The position numbers and the translations under genes are program-made. Positions 2,789 to 31,359 of a DNA stretch of 64,000 nt are shown here, in pieces. How positions within the stretch are numbered: position 1 is the first letter of the stretch; every line of letters starts with the position of its first letter. The notes under the pieces are model-generated. The model had not been told where the DNA came from and made no database searches. It was given only the letters and a program-made list of their open reading frames with translations. The stretch comes from a virus, in the IMG/VR virus record IMGVR_UViG_3300013901_000001; one strand, 5' to 3'.

Positions 2789-3064
2789 GAGGGTGCTTCC
2801 GTGAATCAGATGAACATATTTGATTTAATTAGAAAACCTATACAGATTACAAAGCCGATTCGTCTCATAGAATTATTTGCCGGGTATGGAAGCCAATCAA
2901 TGGCATTGAAAAGAATTGGTGCAAACTTTGAGCATTATAGGGTTGTGGAATTTGATAAGTTTGCCATTGCAAGCTATAACGCAGTGCACGGAACAAATTT
3001 TCAAGCATTGGACATTACAAAAATTCATGCAAATGATTTGAACATCTGTGATACAGAATCATTC

Positions 3065-3087
3065 ACTTACTTACTTACTTACTTACT
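3065..3087 (+). repeat. tetranucleotide repeat (ACTT)x5.75 inside the C5-MTase gene
   Basis: Read directly as acttacttacttacttacttact. The reading frame changes from that of 2801.. to that of 3048.. across it. Loss of one unit would join the frames. Confidence 0.9.
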
Positions 3088-3560
3088 CGTTTCCTTGCAC
3101 AGATCTTTCCGTAGCTGGGAAACGAGCCGGAATGAGTAAAGAAAGTGGAACAAGATCTGGACTTCTGTGGGAAGTGGAAAGAATACTTACTGAAATCAAA
3201 GAAGAAAAAGAAGAACTTCCACAGATTTTATTTATGGAGAATGTACCACAAGTGCATAGTTCGGATAATATGCCGGATTTTAGAAAATGGATAGATTTTC
3301 TTGAAAGCCTTGGTTACAAAAATTATTATCAGGACCTTAACGCAAAAAATTATGGAGTGGCGCAAAACCGTGAACGATGTTTTATGTTTTCGTTTCTTGG
3401 AGAATATAATTACCATTTTCCACAGCCGTTTCCTCTTGAAAAGAAGTTAAAGGATTATTTGGAAGATAATGTTGATGAAAAGTATTACATCAATAATGAA
3501 AAATCCAAAAAGTTGATAAAGCAGCTTATTGACAACGGAACACTTCCTCAACACAATCTT

Positions 3561-3617
3561 GAGAGCAGAGCAGAGCAGAGCAGAGCAGAGCAGAGCAGAG
3601 CAGAGCAGAGCAGAGCA
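3561..3617 (+). repeat. pentanucleotide repeat (GAGCA)x11 inside the C5-MTase gene
   Basis: Read directly. Eleven full units span 3563-3617. The upstream frame ends 12 nt after the tract and the TRD-bearing frame continues. Gain of one unit would join them. Confidence 0.9.
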
Positions 3618-3906
3618 AACTTGCGTTGACGGAACAATCTGCAATCCACAAAGAAGAAAGATTGCGAACTGTATCATGGCAAGAGACTACGGAATCTCAA
3701 CACAGTCACAGACAGGAAACCTTGTTGTTAAAAGGAATGTCAAGTAATAAATACGATCCATATGCAGAAAAAGCAGATATTTCAAGAACCATATGCGCTA
3801 GGGATTATAAGGGCTTAAATAATTTTGGACAGAATGGAGTAATTGAATGGAAATCATAGGAAGTATATACACGGGAGTTTCAGACGGATATCAGCACGGA
3901 ATCTTA

Positions 3907-3916
3907 GGGGGGGGGG
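3907..3916 (+). repeat. G10 homopolymer inside the C5-MTase gene
   Basis: ttaggggggggggatt. G10 to G9 would join ...YQHGILGGG to ISRCVKAENHD. Confidence 0.9.
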
Positions 3917-4030
3917 ATTTCCCGTTGTGTCAAAGCTGAAAATCATGATTTAGGAGTAGTTATGGCAGATGTGAATGTTTTAGGTAGTCTTGAATCGAAA
4001 TTTGAGAGTACCAGTAGAATTTATGGAGTA

Positions 4031-4039
4031 GGGGGGGGG
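4031..4039 (+). repeat. G9 homopolymer inside the C5-MTase gene
   Basis: gtagggggggggtgag. G9 to G10 would join ...RIYGVGGG to VSPTLSTMQGG. Confidence 0.9.
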
Positions 4040-4601
4040 TGAGTCCTACGTTAAGCACAATGCAAGGTGGTAATCAAAAACCGAAAATACTTGAAGTAAA
4101 ACAGCTAGGATTTATGGAAAACGGAACTGGAAAACATCAGTCCAATACTGTATACGATGAAAACTCATTATCCCCTAGCATAACAACGGTTGAAAATGGT
4201 GGTACGCAACAGATTAAAATATGCGAAAGCCAAATAGTTGCCATGCGTGGAAGAAATCCAGATAATCCGTCCGACAGAACTGCAGGAAGTCCAACGGAAC
4301 AAAGACTTGAATTAAATAAACATGAAACAAGTAATTGCATTACAAGTGTTCAAAAAGACAATATGGTTATGGAAAATCCCACATATCGCATAAGAAAACT
4401 TACCCCGAGAGAATGCGGTAGACTTATGGATGTATCAGACGAAGATATTTCCAAAATGGAAAAGGTAAATAGCAACACGCAGCTATACAAACAGTTTGGA
4501 AATTCTATTGTAGTAGGTGTTATGTGCGAGATGTTTAAAAATTTAAACATAAATCAATAAGACCGGACAGTTCCGGTTTGCATAGTTTGGAGGAAAAGAA
4601 A

Positions 4602-5168
4602 ATGAAAGTAAAAAGAACAGTAACAATGAAAGTTAGCCATTTTGGGGTTGGAGACCAGATTACCGTAAAACTTCCAGAATACGGAAAGTTTACGGCTATG
4701 GCACATGAGATCACGGACAAAGGAACATTATTTATCTTCGATGATTGTGTTTGCGAAAGATGGATGAACAAAGAAAATACGAATGAAGGTGGATATTTGG
4801 AATCTGACCTTAGAAAGTTTGTAACACAGGAGTTGCTAAAGGCATTTCCAGATAAACTGCTTGTAAGGATGGTAAAGGACGATAACGGAGATCTACTTTC
4901 CATTCCGACTTACGGACAGGTTTTGGGTAAAGACTGGGACGATGAGTGGGATGAGAAAAACATTGAGATCGACAAGAGAGAACAATTGCCACTGATGCAG
5001 AAAAGAAAGAACCGGATTGCAGATTTACAAAACGAATGGACATGGTACTGGTTGCAAAATAAAGTCCGGTCGTCGTCTCACTTCGCTCGCGTCGATGGCG
5101 ATGGCCGTGCGGCCAACTACGGCGCGTCTGGCTCCGGCGGGGTTCGTCCGGCTTTCCTAATCAAGTAA
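4602..5168 (+). CDS. DGR target protein 1 (small protein with C-terminal variable C-type-lectin-like region)
   Basis: ATG at 4602 after ggaggaaaag. The C-terminus WYWLQNKVRSSSHFARVDGDGRAANYGASGSGGVRPAFLIK is encoded by VR1. Paralog of 11318..11887. Confidence 0.85.
   Translation: MKVKRTVTMKVSHFGVGDQITVKLPEYGKFTAMAHEITDKGTLFIFDDCVCERWMNKENTNEGGYLESDLRKFVTQELLKAFPDKLLVRMVKDDNGDLLSIPTYGQVLGKDWDDEWDEKNIEIDKREQLPLMQKRKNRIADLQNEWTWYWLQNKVRSSSHFARVDGDGRAANYGASGSGGVRPAFLIK
5064..5150 (+). repeat. DGR variable region VR1
   Basis: 87-nt hand alignment to TR 53002..53088. 19 differences, 18 at TR adenines. Confidence 0.85.
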
Positions 5169-5177
5169 TCATTAATC

Positions 5178-5196
5178 CGCGCCCCTTGTGGGCGTG
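5178..5196 (+). promoter_or_regulatory. GC-rich hairpin downstream of VR1 (DGR homing-associated stem-loop candidate)
   Basis: cgcgccc-cttgt-gggcgtg, 7 bp including one G-T pair. Identical copy after VR2 and a compensated copy after VR3. Confidence 0.6.
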
Positions 5197-5233
5197 GAAA
5201 TGGAAGTAAATTGAAGATTAATGGAGGTAAACC

Positions 5234-6370: not shown

Positions 6371-7747
6371 ATGGATTACGAAGAGTTTTTAAAGAATAAA
6401 AGATTTGTTTTAGAAAGTAGTGGATTCGATATTGATAAATCCCAATTAAATCCGATGCTATACGACTTTCAGAAAGACATAGTTCGGTGGGCATTGAAGA
6501 AAGGAAAAGCCTGTATATTTGCAGATTGCGGACTTGGGAAAACACCTATGCAGTTATCGTGGGCGCATCAAGTTCACATGCATACTGGTGGGGATGTTCT
6601 TATTCTTACACCATTAGCTGTTGCCGAACAGACAAAGCGAGAGGCTGAAAAATTCGGATATGATGCAAAAGTAGTTGATAAACAGGATGATTGCATCAAC
6701 GGAATAAATATAACGAACTATGAAAAGCTGGACAGGTTTGCTGCGAATCATTTTTCCGGAATTGTTCTTGATGAGAGCAGTATTTTGAAATCTTACAGTG
6801 GAAAAGTAAGAACTGCCATTATTCAGAATTTCCATGAAGTTCCTTACAAATTAGCTTGCACAGCTACTCCAGCACCAAACGATTATATGGAATTGGGGAA
6901 TCATTCGGAATTTTGTGGAGTGATGACAAGACCAGAAATGCTATCAATGTTCTTTGTGCATGATGGTGGAGAAACATCGAAATGGAGATTGAAAGGTCAT
7001 GCAGAGGATGTGTTCTGGCAGTGGCTATCTACATTTAGCGTATTTGTTGATAATCCGAACAATATCGGATACGAGATTGATGGATATAATCTACCAGAAC
7101 TTAAAATAAAAGAAATAATTGTGGATGGGGATACGACAACAACAGAGAACTTGACATTAACAGAACGGAGACAAGCGAGAAAGGATAGCTTGCAAAAAAG
7201 ATGCGAATGTGCATCAGAACTTGTAAATAATTCTAATGAGCAATGGCTTGTATGGTGTGACTTGAATGATGAAAGCCATAAGCTGCATGAATTAATCGAA
7301 GAAAGCGTTGAAGTTGAGGGAAGTGATAAAGAACAACACAAGTCTTCAGCCATGCTTGATTTTAGCAATGGGAATATAAAGTGTCTTGTTACAAAACCTA
7401 AAATTGCCGGATTTGGGATGAATTGGCAGAACTGTCATAACATGATTTTTACCGGACTTTCGGATAGTTATGAGCAGTATTATCAGGCTCTCCGCAGATG
7501 TTGGAGATTTGGCCAGAGTGAACAGGTGAATGTTTATATTATCATTTCATCAAAAGAAGGATGCGTGAAAGAAAACATTGAAAGAAAGCAGAAAGACTTT
7601 GCAAAAATGCAGAAAGAAATGACAGAACTCACAAAGGAAATAACAAAAAAAGAACTAAGGAGTACGTGTAGGATTTCCACACCATATGAACCGCAAATAC
7701 ATCTAACTTTACCGATGTGGGATGAATTTAAGAAAGGAAATGAATAG
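6371..7747 (+). CDS. SNF2/DEAD-like superfamily 2 helicase
   Basis: Walker A ADCGLGKT, motif II LDESS, C-terminal helicase lobe (KPKIAGFGMNWQNCHNMIF...RCWRFGQ). Confidence 0.8.
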   Translation: MDYEEFLKNKRFVLESSGFDIDKSQLNPMLYDFQKDIVRWALKKGKACIFADCGLGKTPMQLSWAHQVHMHTGGDVLILTPLAVAEQTKREAEKFGYDAKVVDKQDDCINGINITNYEKLDRFAANHFSGIVLDESSILKSYSGKVRTAIIQNFHEVPYKLACTATPAPNDYMELGNHSEFCGVMTRPEMLSMFFVHDGGETSKWRLKGHAEDVFWQWLSTFSVFVDNPNNIGYEIDGYNLPELKIKEIIVDGDTTTTENLTLTERRQARKDSLQKRCECASELVNNSNEQWLVWCDLNDESHKLHELIEESVEVEGSDKEQHKSSAMLDFSNGNIKCLVTKPKIAGFGMNWQNCHNMIFTGLSDSYEQYYQALRRCWRFGQSEQVNVYIIISSKEGCVKENIERKQKDFAKMQKEMTELTKEITKKELRSTCRISTPYEPQIHLTLPMWDEFKKGNE

Positions 7748-8675
7748 AATGGACGTTTTAGCACAGACAATAGAAAAGAATTATGCAATTTACAATGGAG
7801 ATAGTTGCGAACTGATTAAGGCAATTCCGAATAATAGCATTCATTACACTATTTTTAGTCCACCATTTGCAAGCCTATATACTTACTCCAACAGTGATAG
7901 GGATATGGGAAACAGCAAGGGAGATGATGAATTTTACGAACACTTTAAATTCCTAGCAACAGAACTTTATAGGGTAACGATGCCTGGACGATTGCTTTCG
8001 TTTCACTGCATGGATTTACCACTAATGAAAGAAAGGGATGGCGTGATCGGATTAAAAGATTTCCCGGCACTTGTAAGACAGATTTTTGAAGATTGCGGTT
8101 TTATTTATCATAGTAAGGTGACGATTTGGAAAAATCCGGTCACAGAAATGCAGAGAACTAAGGCACATGGGCTTCTTCACAAGCAAATAAGGAAAGACAG
8201 TACAATGAACAGGCAAGGAATCCCAGATTACATTGTTACGATGCGGAAACCGGGCGAGAATCCAGAGAGAGTATCGCATACACATGAAACATTTCCTGTT
8301 GATGTGTGGCAGAATTACGCAAGTCCTGTATGGATGGATATTCGGCAGTCTGATACATTGCAAAAGAAGTCTGCAAGGGAAAACAAGGATGAGCGTCATA
8401 TCTGTCCGTTACAATTAGAAGTAATTCAAAGATGCATTGAATTATGGACGAATAAAAATGACATAGTTTTAGATCCGTTTGCCGGAATTGGCAGCAGCCC
8501 ATACGTTGCTGTTACGATGGGGAGACGTGGCATAGGATTTGAACTTAAAGAAAGCTACTATAAACAGGCTGTTGCAAACCTTGAAGCAGCAGTAAGTTTT
8601 AATAAGATGGATTGCCCGGTAGGTCAAATGTCAATTGAGGATTTTTTAGGGGAGAATGTCTTGCAGTGCAGTTAA
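7722..8675 (+). CDS. N6-adenine/N4-cytosine DNA methyltransferase (beta class)
   Basis: Catalytic SPPF (IFSPPFAS) lies upstream of the AdoMet motif VLDPFAGIGSS. The start may instead be the ATG at 7749. Confidence 0.85.
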   Translation: MNLRKEMNRMDVLAQTIEKNYAIYNGDSCELIKAIPNNSIHYTIFSPPFASLYTYSNSDRDMGNSKGDDEFYEHFKFLATELYRVTMPGRLLSFHCMDLPLMKERDGVIGLKDFPALVRQIFEDCGFIYHSKVTIWKNPVTEMQRTKAHGLLHKQIRKDSTMNRQGIPDYIVTMRKPGENPERVSHTHETFPVDVWQNYASPVWMDIRQSDTLQKKSARENKDERHICPLQLEVIQRCIELWTNKNDIVLDPFAGIGSSPYVAVTMGRRGIGFELKESYYKQAVANLEAAVSFNKMDCPVGQMSIEDFLGENVLQCS

Positions 8676-11317: not shown

Positions 11318-11887
11318 ATGAAAGCATGGAGAAAAGTAAAAATGGAGATCAAAAACTATAAGGTCGGAGATCAGATCGCGGTGAAACTCAAAGGTTTTGG
11401 GAAATTTACGGCTACGGCGCAGAGAGTTTATGACGATGGAAAAACGCTGTTTCTTTTCGATAACTGCGTTGCAGAACGGCATATGAACGAAAACGGTTCA
11501 AATTCCGGAGGTTTTTATGAATCCGACTTATGCAAGTGGATGAATACAAAATTGGTGAAAACTTTTCCTGCTAAACTTCTTGACCGCATGATTTATACGG
11601 ACGAAGAGCATGAATGTCTGCTTCGAATTCCGACAAGAAAGGAAATGTTCGGAGAGAATGAATATAGCGAAAATTACGAACCTGATTTAGACAAACAGCT
11701 TGAACTTATGAAAGACAGAAAAAATCGTGTATGCTCACTTCCTGATGATGAATATGCATGGTATTGGTTGATGAACGCGAATATCCGGTCGTCGTCTGGC
11801 TTCGCTTGTGTCCCTAGCCGTGGCACTGCGCTCACCGGCGACGCGTCTGCCTCCCTCGGGGTTCGTCCGGCTTTCCTAATCAAGTAA
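11318..11887 (+). CDS. DGR target protein 2 (paralog of 4602..5168)
   Basis: ATG at 11318 aligns with the paralog start (MKAWRKVKMEIKNYKVGDQ vs MKVKRTVTMKVSHFGVGDQ). The C-terminus WYWLMNANIRSSSGFACVPSRGTALTGDASASLGVRPAFLIK is encoded by VR2. Confidence 0.85.
   Translation: MKAWRKVKMEIKNYKVGDQIAVKLKGFGKFTATAQRVYDDGKTLFLFDNCVAERHMNENGSNSGGFYESDLCKWMNTKLVKTFPAKLLDRMIYTDEEHECLLRIPTRKEMFGENEYSENYEPDLDKQLELMKDRKNRVCSLPDDEYAWYWLMNANIRSSSGFACVPSRGTALTGDASASLGVRPAFLIK
11783..11869 (+). repeat. DGR variable region VR2
   Basis: Hand alignment to TR. 19 differences, all at TR adenines. Confidence 0.85.
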
Positions 11888-11896
11888 TCATTAATC

Positions 11897-11915
11897 CGCG
11901 CCCCTTGTGGGCGTG
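11897..11915 (+). promoter_or_regulatory. GC-rich hairpin downstream of VR2
   Basis: Same sequence as 5178..5196. About 60 nt from the VR 3' end through the hairpin is identical in both loci. Confidence 0.6.
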
Positions 11916-11953
11916 GAAATGGAAGTAAAATTAAAATTTCGGAGGTAAAGTAG

Positions 11954-28723: not shown

Positions 28724-28950
28724 AAATAGGGTATGGTCTATTTTTACGCATGAAAAATTGTGCAATATGACTAACGAATCCGGAATGACTCCTTGACCAC
28801 CAGAAGCACCCGGGAGGGGGTTACACGGGAACCGCCGAAACCGCCCACTTAGCCCCTCAACCACCCCAAAAATCAAAAAGCCACTTATCCAAAACGGATA
28901 AACAAAGCAAGGATAATCCAATTCTTAAAAATTTTTTAAAAACAAAAAAA

Positions 28951-28960
28951 GGGGGGGGGG
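28951..28960 (+). repeat. intergenic G10 homopolymer preceded by A7
   Basis: aaaaaaagggggggggga read directly. Confidence 0.9.
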
Positions 28961-29040: not shown

Positions 29041-29199
29041 TTATTTCCCAATGCTTTTTAAATAAGCATCCAGGGATTTATCCAATATTTTACTCATTGG
29101 TATGCTACTTTCATCGGAATACTCCTTTAATCTCCGGTGTATTTCCTTGTCAAGAGAACTTGAAATGAAAATACGGTTTTTTAATCTTCTGTCAGCCAT
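29041..29199 (-). CDS. ribbon-helix-helix protein (52 aa)
   Basis: MADRRLKNRIFISSSLDKEIHRRLKEYSDESSIPMSKILDKSLDAYLKSIGK after an aaggaggtgattac RBS. Divergent from the recombinase gene. Confidence 0.5.
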   Translation of the reverse strand: MADRRLKNRIFISSSLDKEIHRRLKEYSDESSIPMSKILDKSLDAYLKSIGK

Positions 29200-29325: not shown

Positions 29326-29910
29326 ATGAAGATTGGATATGTAAGAGTTTCAACAGTGGATCAGAATGAAGATCGACAGATTGAAGGACTTGAAAAGTAT
29401 GGGATTGAAAAGTGGTACATGGAAAAGGTTTCTGGAAAAAACATGAACCGGGAACAATTACAGGAAATGCTTTCCTGCATAAAAGAAGGAGATACGGTTT
29501 ACGTACATGATTTTAGCCGATTGGCAAGAAGCACCAAGGATTTGTTGGAAATTGTAGAATCCCTTAATAAAAAGAGCGTGCACCTTGTAAGCAATAAGGA
29601 AAACATTGATACATCTACTCCACAAGGAAAATTGATGGTGACAATGCTTGCTGCAATTTATGAGTTTGAGCGAACTAATATGCTTGAACGTCAGGCAGAG
29701 GGAATTGAAATTGCAAAGAGAAAAAAGGTTTACAAGGGAAGAAAGCCGAAAGATATTTCCAGAGAGCAAGTAATTGACGGTCTTAAGAGATACAAAGCCG
29801 GACTTGTTACGAAAAAGGATCTTGCAAAAGAAATCGGGGTTTCGATCCCCACACTTAACAAGAACTTTGATGAATTTGATTTTTGGAACAGTGAAGATGG
29901 TGAAGAATGA
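29326..29910 (+). CDS. small serine recombinase (Hin/Gin invertase-resolvase family)
   Basis: MKIGYVRVSTVDQNEDRQ, ...FSRLARSTKDLLEIV..., C-terminal HTH (TKKDLAKEIGVSIPTLNK). Confidence 0.85.
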   Translation: MKIGYVRVSTVDQNEDRQIEGLEKYGIEKWYMEKVSGKNMNREQLQEMLSCIKEGDTVYVHDFSRLARSTKDLLEIVESLNKKSVHLVSNKENIDTSTPQGKLMVTMLAAIYEFERTNMLERQAEGIEIAKRKKVYKGRKPKDISREQVIDGLKRYKAGLVTKKDLAKEIGVSIPTLNKNFDEFDFWNSEDGEE

Positions 29911-30594: not shown

Positions 30595-31359
30595 ATGATC
30601 TTGAATTGCATAAACTGTGGTGCACCGATTGATAATACAAAAACAAAATGCCCGTATTGCGACACTCCATATAAGTTAAATGGATTTGCTGGTGAGATTT
30701 CAGAGGAAAGTAACTGCGGAGTGTTGAATATAGGCGGTCATTTCTACGATGACTATTTGTCCAGTGTAGAGGTAGGGGATTACGGATACATGGGATATAG
30801 GGATGCCACAGGAAGGTCGATAAGAGAAGTAAGAAACATTCACAGAACGTTACGTTGGAGACTTACTAACATGATGATAAATATTTTGTTTCTTGTGGAT
30901 TCAATAGAAGACGCTGCATTAGAAACATACATAACTGAAAATGTCGTGAAAGATAAACGAGGGATTTTTGACATTGATTACGAATATGCGATGATAAGCA
31001 TTAATAACATAAAAGTGTGGTTTTGCGCTCCAGAAGCTGAAAGATGCATTTCTCCAATATTGTTTTGTGATTGTGTAGTTGTAGATGTAAATACGGCTAA
31101 AGGAATTTTGGAAAAAGAAAATCTGCAAAGAATGCGTAAAACGATACCGTTTTATGACAGATCTTGTTTTTATAAGACAATGATTGACGAATGGGAGAGG
31201 AAGAACGTGAAAAAGAGTATTATTGACCGTTGGAAGAAGCATGGAGAATTTACAAGGCGTTGCATGATAGCCGGATTTTCAAAAGATTTTATTCCTACAC
31301 GGTTTGAATATGCAATTACAGGCACTAAACTTCATAAGTTAATCTATGGGAGAAACTAA
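30595..31359 (+). CDS. hypothetical protein with N-terminal zinc ribbon
   Basis: MILNCINCGAPIDNTKTKCPYCDTPY. Confidence 0.55.
   Translation: MILNCINCGAPIDNTKTKCPYCDTPYKLNGFAGEISEESNCGVLNIGGHFYDDYLSSVEVGDYGYMGYRDATGRSIREVRNIHRTLRWRLTNMMINILFLVDSIEDAALETYITENVVKDKRGIFDIDYEYAMISINNIKVWFCAPEAERCISPILFCDCVVVDVNTAKGILEKENLQRMRKTIPFYDRSCFYKTMIDEWERKNVKKSIIDRWKKHGEFTRRCMIAGFSKDFIPTRFEYAITGTKLHKLIYGRN

Follow-up and report, generated by a model that had tools for sequence, protein, structure and literature searches.

Here we describe a phage cytosine-5 (C5) methyltransferase gene, with one catalytic core and six tandem target-recognition modules, in a stretch of 64,000 nucleotides (nt) from the IMG/VR virus record IMGVR_UViG_3300013901_000001 (hereafter the window, meaning this whole stretch). 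We consider it probable that the enzyme is split, being made from two open reading frames (ORFs), and that hypermutable repeats within these vary which of the six modules are expressed. The gene comprises two ORFs and is under purifying selection, and its repeat tracts are polymorphic among otherwise identical genes. Three of the tracts are hypermutable throughout a clade of related gut phages and a fourth within a single strain, and both the tract positions and two fixed frame changes are conserved clade-wide. To our knowledge, phase-variable methyltransferases are known almost only from bacterial pathogens, where they act as ON/OFF switches; in our reading, the locus combines such a methyltransferase with a multi-target phage methyltransferase, in a common human-gut phage group.

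Layout of the methyltransferase gene

An earlier interpretation made from the letters of the window (the sequence-only reading) had described the gene as a C5 methyltransferase of about 585 amino acids (aa) that passes through several frames, and three-frame translation reproduced both its frame path and all six of the recognition cores that it quoted. Frame 0 runs from 2801 to a tetranucleotide (ACTT) tract and contains motif I, and frame 1 continues to a pentanucleotide (GAGCA) tract with motifs IV, VI and VIII. Module A is read in frame 2, module B in frame 0, the segment from 3847 to a first poly-G tract (G10) in frame 2, the segment from there to a second one (G9) in frame 0, and the remainder to the stop codon at 4560, with motifs IX and X, in frame 2. 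The C5 motifs I, IV, VI, VIII, IX and X are thus all present in order, spread over three frames, with motif IX as RIRKLTPRECGRLM at 4384-4428 and motif X as QFGNSIVV at 4492-4515. When the six edits listed in the sequence-only reading are applied, the product is 586 aa long and matches Pfam PF00145 (E = 1.8e-56); the best solved relatives are M.HhaI (E = 1e-28), M.HaeIII and M.MpeI, via the catalytic core alone. Each of the six modules has a core resembling the usual TL/ARDYKG-type recognition core, and none of them matches a solved structure or a named phage enzyme, with matches covering the catalytic core only. One core with tandem modules therefore stands as had been described; a single ORF broken at six sites does not, since two of the six sites, A4 (3730-3733) and A3 (3851-3853), are invariant.

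Tandem Repeats Finder and regular-expression scans of the window located (ACTT)5.75 at 3065-3087 and (AGAGC)11.2 at 3562-3617, the latter equivalent to eleven GAGCA units at 3563-3617 and hereafter called simple-sequence repeat 1 (SSR1). The coordinates proposed earlier for ACTT, G10, G9, A4 and A3 were confirmed, and only the start of GAGCA had been placed 1-2 nt early (3561 instead of 3562 or 3563). Besides ACTT and AGAGC, the 64-kilobase (kb) window (38.7% G+C) contains no perfect array of 4- or 5-nt units with at least five copies, and its G runs of seven or more are the G10 and G9 of the gene and a single extra, intergenic G10 at 28951-28960. In the window, all four tracts (ACTT, SSR1 and both poly-G tracts) are in an off or non-productive setting, and ORF1 stops at 3139 because one extra ACTT unit shifts the frame.

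Tract lengths differ between otherwise identical genes

Protein homologs of the enzyme number in the thousands (322-600 aa) and have the core in common, with whole modules of about 40-50 aa present or absent; at least 315 IMG/VR contigs encode a relative. For same-strain copies, exact-protein look-ups in ENA and Logan assemblies returned 11 further contigs, one of which is the window's source contig, giving 11 independent same-strain assemblies from at least three datasets and 12 copies to compare. The IMG/VR relatives comprise 80 contigs of 70-86% identity, mostly phage contigs of 50-61 kb, and an unbiased sample was obtained by repeating the search with the catalytic core alone, which gave 80 IMG/VR contigs. 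In all, about 110 distinct related gut-phage contigs underlie the clade-wide tract pattern, which recurs in ENA, Logan, IMG/VR and JGI data: the breaks are limited to the same three or four sites, with the two poly-G tracts at the same two places.

Within the strain, copies of the gene, about 1.8 kb long, have 0-1 single-nucleotide polymorphism (SNP), against a divergence of 1-3% in the flanks, and otherwise identical genes differ at the tracts only, and at all four of them. The ACTT tract is one unit shorter, and in frame, in four assemblies, and has the window's length in this assembly and in contig L086. GAGCA occurs as alleles of 4.2, 5.2, 6.2 and 11.2 units and as a 7-unit allele (known from protein P0124); 4 and 7 units lead through a spacer into module B (state L), 6 units into module A (state A), and 5 and 11 units into a stop (state X). 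The first G tract is found as G8, G9, G10, G8AG and G9AG, with G9 restoring the frame in L087 and L091, and the second as G7, G8 and G9, with G7 giving an ORF of 198 aa in L002. Tract length and flanking phylogeny disagree, since L086 has the long ACTT tract of the window, yet its flanks are nearer to those of L002, in which the tract is short. A second strain cluster shows the same pattern in SSR1, with otherwise identical proteins in which state A goes with 1, 2, 3 or 4 SRAEQ units and state L with three units or a partial one. The hypermutability postulated by the sequence-only reading is borne out by these copies, in which the tracts are the sole differences, and by their variability at the same sites in relatives; the comparison of related phages that it had called for showed tract lengths that vary around a conserved C-terminal ORF. 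An exact-pattern scan of metagenome_contigs with the sequence immediately 5' of the first G tract returned no match.

The four tracts are not equivalent. The ACTT run is 19 nt long in 69 of the 80 relatives and never longer, and forms an in-frame TYLLTY codon run (4.75 units); the extra unit is confined to two same-strain assemblies, the window included. ACTT is thus best seen as a weaker slippage site that varies in this strain, and not as a clade-wide switch.

A conserved split into two reading frames

The ORF that contains motifs I-VIII nearly always ends in NGVIEWK(N/K/Y/S)-stop in the 80 IMG/VR relatives. The corresponding DNA, GGAGTRATTGAATGGAA, is present in 51 of the 80 core-matched relatives, and the EWK-stop ending is kept in relatives of 70-86% identity. 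An ATG within GGAGTRATTGAATGGAA opens a second ORF in the -1 frame, with the stop of ORF1 located 10-19 nt 3' of it, and a GGAG-N7-ATG element is conserved at this junction, the window having its GGAG 7 nt before the ATG at 3847. This ATG serves as the start of four unrelated module types, all beginning with Met-Glu (MEKLTDAIG...ICPTLRANK; MEVIGSIYT...ISRCVKAEKHD; MEVIQIGNIAEEKNF; MEQRRLGNLYGDD), and ORF2 is complete from the junction ATG to motif X in 18 of 52 loci. In the 12 same-strain copies, the junction GGAGTAATTGAATGGAAATCATAG is identical throughout, and A4 and the surroundings of A3 (ATGGAAATCATA) are likewise invariant. Since no copy differs at A4 or A3 and both are conserved in relatives of 70-86% identity, no correction of the tracts yields a single ORF. 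The sequence-only reading had counted both among the frameshifts; they are architecture and not mutations, A3 being the overlap of the ORF1 stop with the ORF2 start and A4 a place at which two reading frames overlap. The layout is that of a split enzyme, with adjacent ORFs that carry motifs I-VIII and then IX-X, a split within the variable region, and a start of its own for ORF2. A fused single ORF exists in only three of about 68 clade members; these read NGVIEVMADV, are missing the one module that comes next to the junction, and resemble deletions between repeated boundary sequences.

SSR1 and the overlapping modules A and B

In relatives, the SSR1 site is occupied by (GACA)3-23 or (AGAGC)3-11. 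The 80 core-matched contigs have 3-23 units and include 28 in state L, 20 in state A and 17 in state X; among the remainder, 12 stop short of the point where the state becomes readable (10 within the repeat itself) and three have no repeat. Because the unit is 4 or 5 nt long, every slippage step alters the frame, and in-frame changes also vary the length of the DRQT/SRAEQ linker. In relatives, the module A frame gives a product with ...QTCVDGTINKPQQREVANCIKARYDCGISNLRSDGNLVV and a stop about 10 codons further on, and the spacer frame reads LALTEQSISHNREKL...EYQTCGQMETWLL and continues into module B and the junction. Module A itself is found in frame in the single-ORF enzymes P0017, P0018, P0020, P0026 and L075. 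Since module A overlaps a stop-free spacer that leads to module B, the repeat would select A, B or neither, and the pentanucleotide is not the simple ON/OFF gate that had been assumed but moves the ribosome between module A, module B and an immediate stop.

The two frames of the module A DNA have evolved under different constraints. Across 41 unique sequences, the module A frame has a ratio of nonsynonymous to synonymous substitution rates (dN/dS) of 0.26 and is free of stops in 41, the spacer frame has a dN/dS of 0.90 and is free of stops in 40, and the third frame is free of stops in none. In the module A frame, third codon positions show the highest nucleotide diversity. A dN/dS of 0.90 implies that the amino-acid sequence of the spacer frame is unconstrained; the frame is apparently held open, yet not conserved as protein. 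If the window's module A is recoded synonymously, the spacer frame stays open in only 14% of cases, and stops in this frame are present in L047 and L099, which are relatives without a working repeat.

SSR1 is also a frequent assembly break. At least 10 of the 80 IMG/VR contigs (L129, L132, L141, L143, L148, L152, L167, L169 and L176 among them) begin or end inside the repeat, as do five same-strain ENA/Logan contigs (L088-L092). These ends are compatible with length heterogeneity, and also with a repeat that is longer than the k-mer used in assembly. For annotation, this means that phage assemblies often break at SSR1, and that automated pipelines call such loci fragments or pseudogenes.

Poly-G tracts and internal starts

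Relatives have G6-G9 at the same two sites, encoding Gly-Gly before the core (GGICPTL or GGISRCV; GGCSPTLS). Of the lengths seen at the second site, G7 keeps the frame in 14 of 17 relatives and G8 loses it in 13 of 13, and the other lengths are mostly out of frame as well (G6 in 8 of 11, G9 in 4 of 5). Where ORF2 is truncated, the break follows immediately after a G tract in 31 of 34 loci. More distant homologs have KSG (P0018 at the first site), VWG or VRG at these positions, so the G tracts are derived features of the clade.

The modules meet at boundaries of the form G-V-(I/V)-...-M, whose glycine is encoded by GGA in 59 of 59 cases, versus 28% GGA in the core. The boundary GGA creates a GGAG 5-11 nt 5' of an in-frame ATG (in the window, GGAG at 3953-3956 and ATG at 3962-3964), a hint that translation of the C-terminus could start here when the upstream G tract is out of frame; with a start at a later boundary, a tract would drop single modules and not the whole enzyme. 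The same pattern could equally reflect a conserved recombination junction. Near-identical GGAGTRATTGAA-type sequences plus an in-frame ATG form the boundaries of every recognition module (L116-L195; 3836-3849 and 3953-3964 in the window), which suggests that cassettes may be exchanged by recombination besides slippage. At the second G tract, only the G8 state puts an ATG-ATG in frame (MMWGG...), and the other states put none. We also considered, and dropped, a second leader frame as a designed feature ahead of the first G tract: a TTG-started frame is open for 21 codons in the ISRCV-type module and closed in the ICPTL type.

A proposed mechanism

The arrangement suggests how the locus might work. 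ORF1 would provide motifs I-VIII, the SSR1 linker and module A or B, and ORF2, starting at the ATG 3847 inside the end of ORF1, would provide modules C-F with motifs IX-X; the two polypeptides may then assemble into an active enzyme, by analogy with M.AquI. Of the three frames set by SSR1, one would read module A and then stop, another would read the spacer into module B, and the third would stop immediately. Each poly-G tract would decide if translation from the ORF2 start reaches the catalytic C-terminus, internal starts could rescue downstream modules, and ACTT slippage would abolish ORF1 in this strain. We tentatively suggest, as one possibility, that the locus is a combinatorial selector, in which SSR1 picks module A, module B or neither, the poly-G tracts and internal starts add or drop modules, and one genotype gives rise to varied methylation in its progeny. 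Through replication slippage, phage and prophage populations would come to express different subsets of modules or none, and methylation would differ between individuals, each module presumably having its own target. The ecological benefit might be a hedged bet: 5-methylcytosine blocks the restriction enzymes of some hosts, whereas other hosts cut DNA that is methylated.

If this is true, the locus is a phage counterpart of bacterial variable restriction systems, a built-in generator of epigenetic diversity through which host range could widen or shift with the rest of the genome unchanged. It would also be a natural case of DNA that encodes a module in one frame and is merely stop-free in another, and would offer ready modules for engineering methyltransferase specificity.

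Several observations weigh against this interpretation. Any one sequence would have a 14% chance of an open spacer frame, and the relatives do not count as independent cases. Among relatives, the intergenic G10 at 28951 is variable too (G7, G8, G10), so variation in G length is general and by itself no proof of function or selection, and no conserved restart signal was found after the second G tract in the relatives compared. We know of no precedent for a split multi-module enzyme that is active with modules on each of its halves. Not one same-strain assembly has every tract in a productive state; the second G tract is G8, and out of frame, in 8 of 11, and the first is interrupted (G8AG, G9AG) in some copies, which could be the onset of tract decay. 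Consensus sequences are, moreover, unable to reveal switching within a population. An 8-nt insertion in motif I is common to six relatives, and a nonsense codon occurs in the core of one relative.

The insertion in motif I reads GGC-TGA(C/A)C-GGC and lies between ELFAG and YGSQ, at about locus position 4085 (L037, L045, L046, L057, L065 and L083). A GGC codon is thereby followed at once by TGA, a further GGC lies 8 nt 3', and the rest of the gene is open. Either the insertion is a lesion, inherited and inactivating, or it is a candidate for a short ribosomal hop, by which ELFAGYGSQ would be restored exactly.

Alternative explanations

One alternative is a plain ON/OFF switch, in which one setting per tract is active and neither the choice between A and B nor control at the level of modules has a function. 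Classic contingency loci behave in this way, and truncation of ORF2 before motifs IX-X should abolish activity, given the roles of these motifs (PMC3404938). However, both frames past SSR1 reach a recognizable module and the spacer is kept open, the three SSR1 states are nearly equal in frequency, three or four serial tracts exceed what a switch needs, and the invariant GGA before an in-frame ATG at module boundaries hints at internal starts. We regard a plain switch as rather unlikely. A different objection concerns the split itself: a single polypeptide of about 585 aa could be made if programmed ribosomal frameshifting bridged the sites at about 3730 and 3851 and only the four repeats acted as gates. 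The same order of modules is found in homologs that are fused into a single ORF (P0002-P0011, L020, L023, L075), and GTT AAA AGG at 3728-3736 permits a +1 slip of Lys-tRNA on A4 before AGG. This context is not conserved, the A-to-B boundary in relatives being AAA GGA TAT and not AAA AGG. There is also no slippery heptamer shared at the junction, because the sequences after ATGGAA vary among relatives (AAATCATAG, GTGA, GTAATAG, AAAACTAA, AAAAATAA, CAAAGAAGATTAG), and what is conserved there is the GGAG-N7-ATG element. The fused relatives lack a module after the junction (NGVIEVMADV) and look like deletions. A single frameshifted polypeptide thus seems very unlikely, and programmed frameshifting at A4 and A3 was rejected as a candidate, with no conserved slippery sequence found among the relatives at either frame change.

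The remaining alternatives deny that the breaks are regulated at all. In a decaying pseudogene, the methyltransferase would be dispensable and the breaks accumulated damage, with the repeats merely mutating fast; the out-of-frame setting of all four window tracts, the lack of a fully in-frame same-strain copy, the A-interrupted G tracts, the subclade with the motif I insertion, the single nonsense codon and the variable intergenic G tract would all fit. However, module F and motifs IX-X form an intact ORF in 66 of the 66 relatives that contain the region, whatever the tract state, with a dN/dS of 0.077 for module F and 0.067 for motifs IX-X at a dS of about 0.68 (58 unique relatives), and these values argue against decay, which the sequence-only reading had left as an alternative. 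Module A retains its low dN/dS even where the assembled state leaves it untranslated, the confinement of the breaks to the same three or four sites in about 110 contigs is not that of random damage, and tract positions are conserved while lengths differ between near-identical genomes, including back-and-forth states, in a gene that is all but invariant within the strain beside diverging flanks. Lesions unrelated to the repeats, which would have spoken for decay, are limited: where ORF2 is truncated, the break nearly always lies at a G tract, and the six relatives with the motif I insertion and the one with the nonsense codon are exceptions. Apart from these, neither scattered lesions nor relaxed selection was found, and the features of a phase-variable locus are present, namely tracts within the ORFs with units that are not multiples of three (4, 5, 1 and 1 nt), lengths that differ between otherwise identical genomes, and coding capacity kept in the OFF alleles. 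We therefore consider a pseudogene quite unlikely. An artefact of sequencing or assembly, with one intact ORF whose tract lengths were mis-called, we regard as highly improbable. Runs of G9-G10 are error-prone, and the many contigs that break in SSR1 show that assemblers struggle there. Yet the window is 100% identical over 6,522 nt to contig NODE_27 of ERZ808271, which is SPAdes-named and has 23x coverage; a name with NODE points to a short-read assembly without proving it, so that the long-read homopolymer error invoked earlier is very unlikely. SSR1, moreover, varies by whole units (4, 5, 6, 7, 11) between assemblies, the A4 and A3 frame changes are the same in all copies, and the pattern returns in data from four sources.

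Relation to known methyltransferases

Multispecific C5 enzymes are described from a few Bacillus phages, M.SPRI, M.Phi3TI, M.Rho11sI, M.H2I and M.(phi)BssHII being those named from Wilke et al. 1988 and Sethmann et al. 1999 as cited in PMC8936443. As far as that account goes, these enzymes resemble the present one in being phage-borne, in having no partner nuclease, in bearing tandem modules between motifs VIII and IX, and in a module content that varies between related phages. Unlike them, the present enzyme has two ORFs, hypermutable repeats at its module boundaries, and two modules in overlapping frames. The match drawn earlier with this group holds for several tandem modules on one core and not for close kinship: in a tblastn comparison with a phi3T-SPbeta hybrid phage, identity is about 31%, in the core only, and no closer than with many monospecific phage enzymes.

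Methyltransferases switched by simple-sequence repeats are well documented in host-adapted bacteria, pathogens among them, and include the Type III mod phasevarions, Type I hsdM/hsdS repeats and the Campylobacter Type IIG gene cj0031 (PMC7383803, PMC4889913). As in the present gene, tetra-, penta- and mononucleotide tracts lie within the coding sequence, vary in length between otherwise identical genomes, and shift the frame. Those enzymes are, however, adenine methyltransferases, chromosomal, and switched ON or OFF as a whole, whereas here a phage cytosine-5 enzyme has three or four tracts, one of which would choose between modules. A change of specificity is known from the Type I system NgoAV of Neisseria gonorrhoeae, in which a poly-G tract in hsdS1 fuses or truncates the specificity subunit (PMC9577141). 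There, as proposed here for a C5 enzyme, the length of a homopolymer sets which recognition domain joins the remainder; NgoAV, in contrast, has a separate subunit, belongs to a Type I adenine enzyme, and has one tract with two useful states, whereas here the tract lies between core and modules, with overlapping frames.

For the split there are precedents. The N-terminal polypeptide of M.AquI contains motifs I-VIII together with some of the variable region, and the C-terminal one the rest with motifs IX-X, from adjacent ORFs; M.EcoHK31I is another natural two-polypeptide C5 enzyme, and split fragments of M.SssI complement each other (PMC3404938). M.AquI and M.EcoHK31I have one target and no repeats, whereas here whole modules are present on both halves and the split is conserved across a phage clade. 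In the library of full-text literature searched, we found no description of a phage C5 enzyme with repeats that select recognition modules.

Feature coordinates and genomic context

The features of the gene are listed in Table 1. The short hairpin that follows the stop codon was scored on the minus strand, the plus strand having merely TTT after it, and a scan for promoters and terminators gave nothing beyond background within the gene.

Table 1. Coordinates of the two-ORF methyltransferase gene in the window
Feature	Position	Strand	Description
ORF1 ribosome-binding site and start	2787-2792; 2801-2803	+	AGGAGG, then GTG; read from the sequence; relatives' ORFs start at the same codon (P0012 begins MNQMNIFD)
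ORF1 first segment	2801-3064	+	Frame 0; motif I ELFAGYGSQ 2870-2896
(ACTT)5.75 tract	3065-3087	+	4.75 units encode TYLLTY right before motif IV (catalytic Pro-Cys)
Catalytic core	3087-3561	+	Frame 1; motif IV SFPCTDLS 3087-3110, motif VI ENVPQV 3234-3254, motif VIII QNRERCFM 3363-3386
Catalytic core, 3' end			Conserved stretch after motif VIII, up to DNGTLPQHN
SSR1 (AGAGC)11.2	3562-3617	+	SRAEQ-repeat linker; at 11 units (state X), a stop at 3627-3629 ends the core frame
Module A	3619-3747	+	Frame 2; TCVDGTICNPQRRKIANCIMARDYGISTQSQTGNLVV; core 3661-3693; TAA 3745-3747
Spacer (module A DNA in frame 0)	3620-3715	+	Stop-free; LALTEQSAIHKEERLRTVSWQETTESQHSHRQ; leads from SSR1 into module B
Module B	3716-3859	+	Frame 0; ETLLLKGMSSNKYDPYAEKADISRTICARDYKGLNNFGQNGVIE; core 3779-3814; ORF1 stop TAG 3857-3859; compare P0012, P0124, P0002
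ORF1/ORF2 junction	3836-3859	+	GGAGTAATTGAATGGAAATCATAG; GGAG 3836-3839, ORF2 ATG 3847-3849, ORF1 stop 3857-3859
ORF2 start and first half of module C	3847-3906	+	Frame 2; MEIIGSIYTGVSDGYQHGIL; homologous to IVGSIYTEVSDRFQKGII of single-ORF P0018
First poly-G tract, G10	3907-3916	+	Gly-Gly-Gly right before the module C core; in frame at 9 nt, here out of frame
Module C core and first half of module D	3917-4030	+	Frame 0; core ISRCVKAENHD 3917-3949
Second poly-G tract, G9	4031-4039	+	Immediately 5' of the module D core; 7 or 10 nt keep the frame, here out of frame
C-terminal part	4039-4560	+	Frame 2; module D core 4042-4071, E core 4171-4203, F core 4330-4362; stop 4558-4560
G+C-rich short hairpin	4562-4577	.	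Directly 3' of the stop codon; weak candidate terminator

Neighboring genes encode a Tad4-like protein, an MBL-fold protein (Apyc1-like), SSB, an HTH protein, DUF6273, a helicase and a second, N6/N4 methyltransferase, and further along lie an integrase-family gene, an SPP1-type portal gene and an ORF of tape-measure size; no nuclease gene adjacent to the methyltransferase was found among the neighbors examined. Relatives occur in metagenome-assembled genomes of Lachnospiraceae and Roseburia, one of them on a 141-kb contig, and the nearest named phage is Dulem virus 39, from lemur faeces. The best explanation is that this is the DNA-modification locus of a temperate gut phage of Lachnospiraceae type. 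In the region of about 1-1788 (via L085/L086), Pfam matches are to Tad4 (an anti-Thoeris family) and to an MBL fold with faint similarity to Apyc1 (anti-Pycsar), and by these matches the methyltransferase looks as if it were part of an anti-defence gene cluster. The second methyltransferase gene (7722-8675; Pfam N6_N4_Mtase, E = 6e-22) lies 3 kb downstream, right after the helicase gene, and is without repeats.

The intergenic G run forms part of an A7G10 run at 28944-28960, directly 5' of a tiny ATG-AAA-TGA ORF. It lies upstream of both an RHH gene on the minus strand (29041-29199) and a gene for a serine recombinase (29326-29910), and is replaced by A5-A6 and G7-G8 in near-identical contigs. 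Elsewhere in the window, an ORF of 254 aa at 30595-31359 is split into 91 and 147-162 aa in several near-identical contigs by an indel near 30849; this T2/T3 difference is linked to two nearby SNPs, as an ordinary frameshift polymorphism and not one of a long repeat. Finally, the DUF6273 gene has at its 3' end (5065-5231) a segment of about 165 nt that recurs 6.7 kb downstream (11784-11949), with 84-88% identity, at the end of an ORF of similar size.

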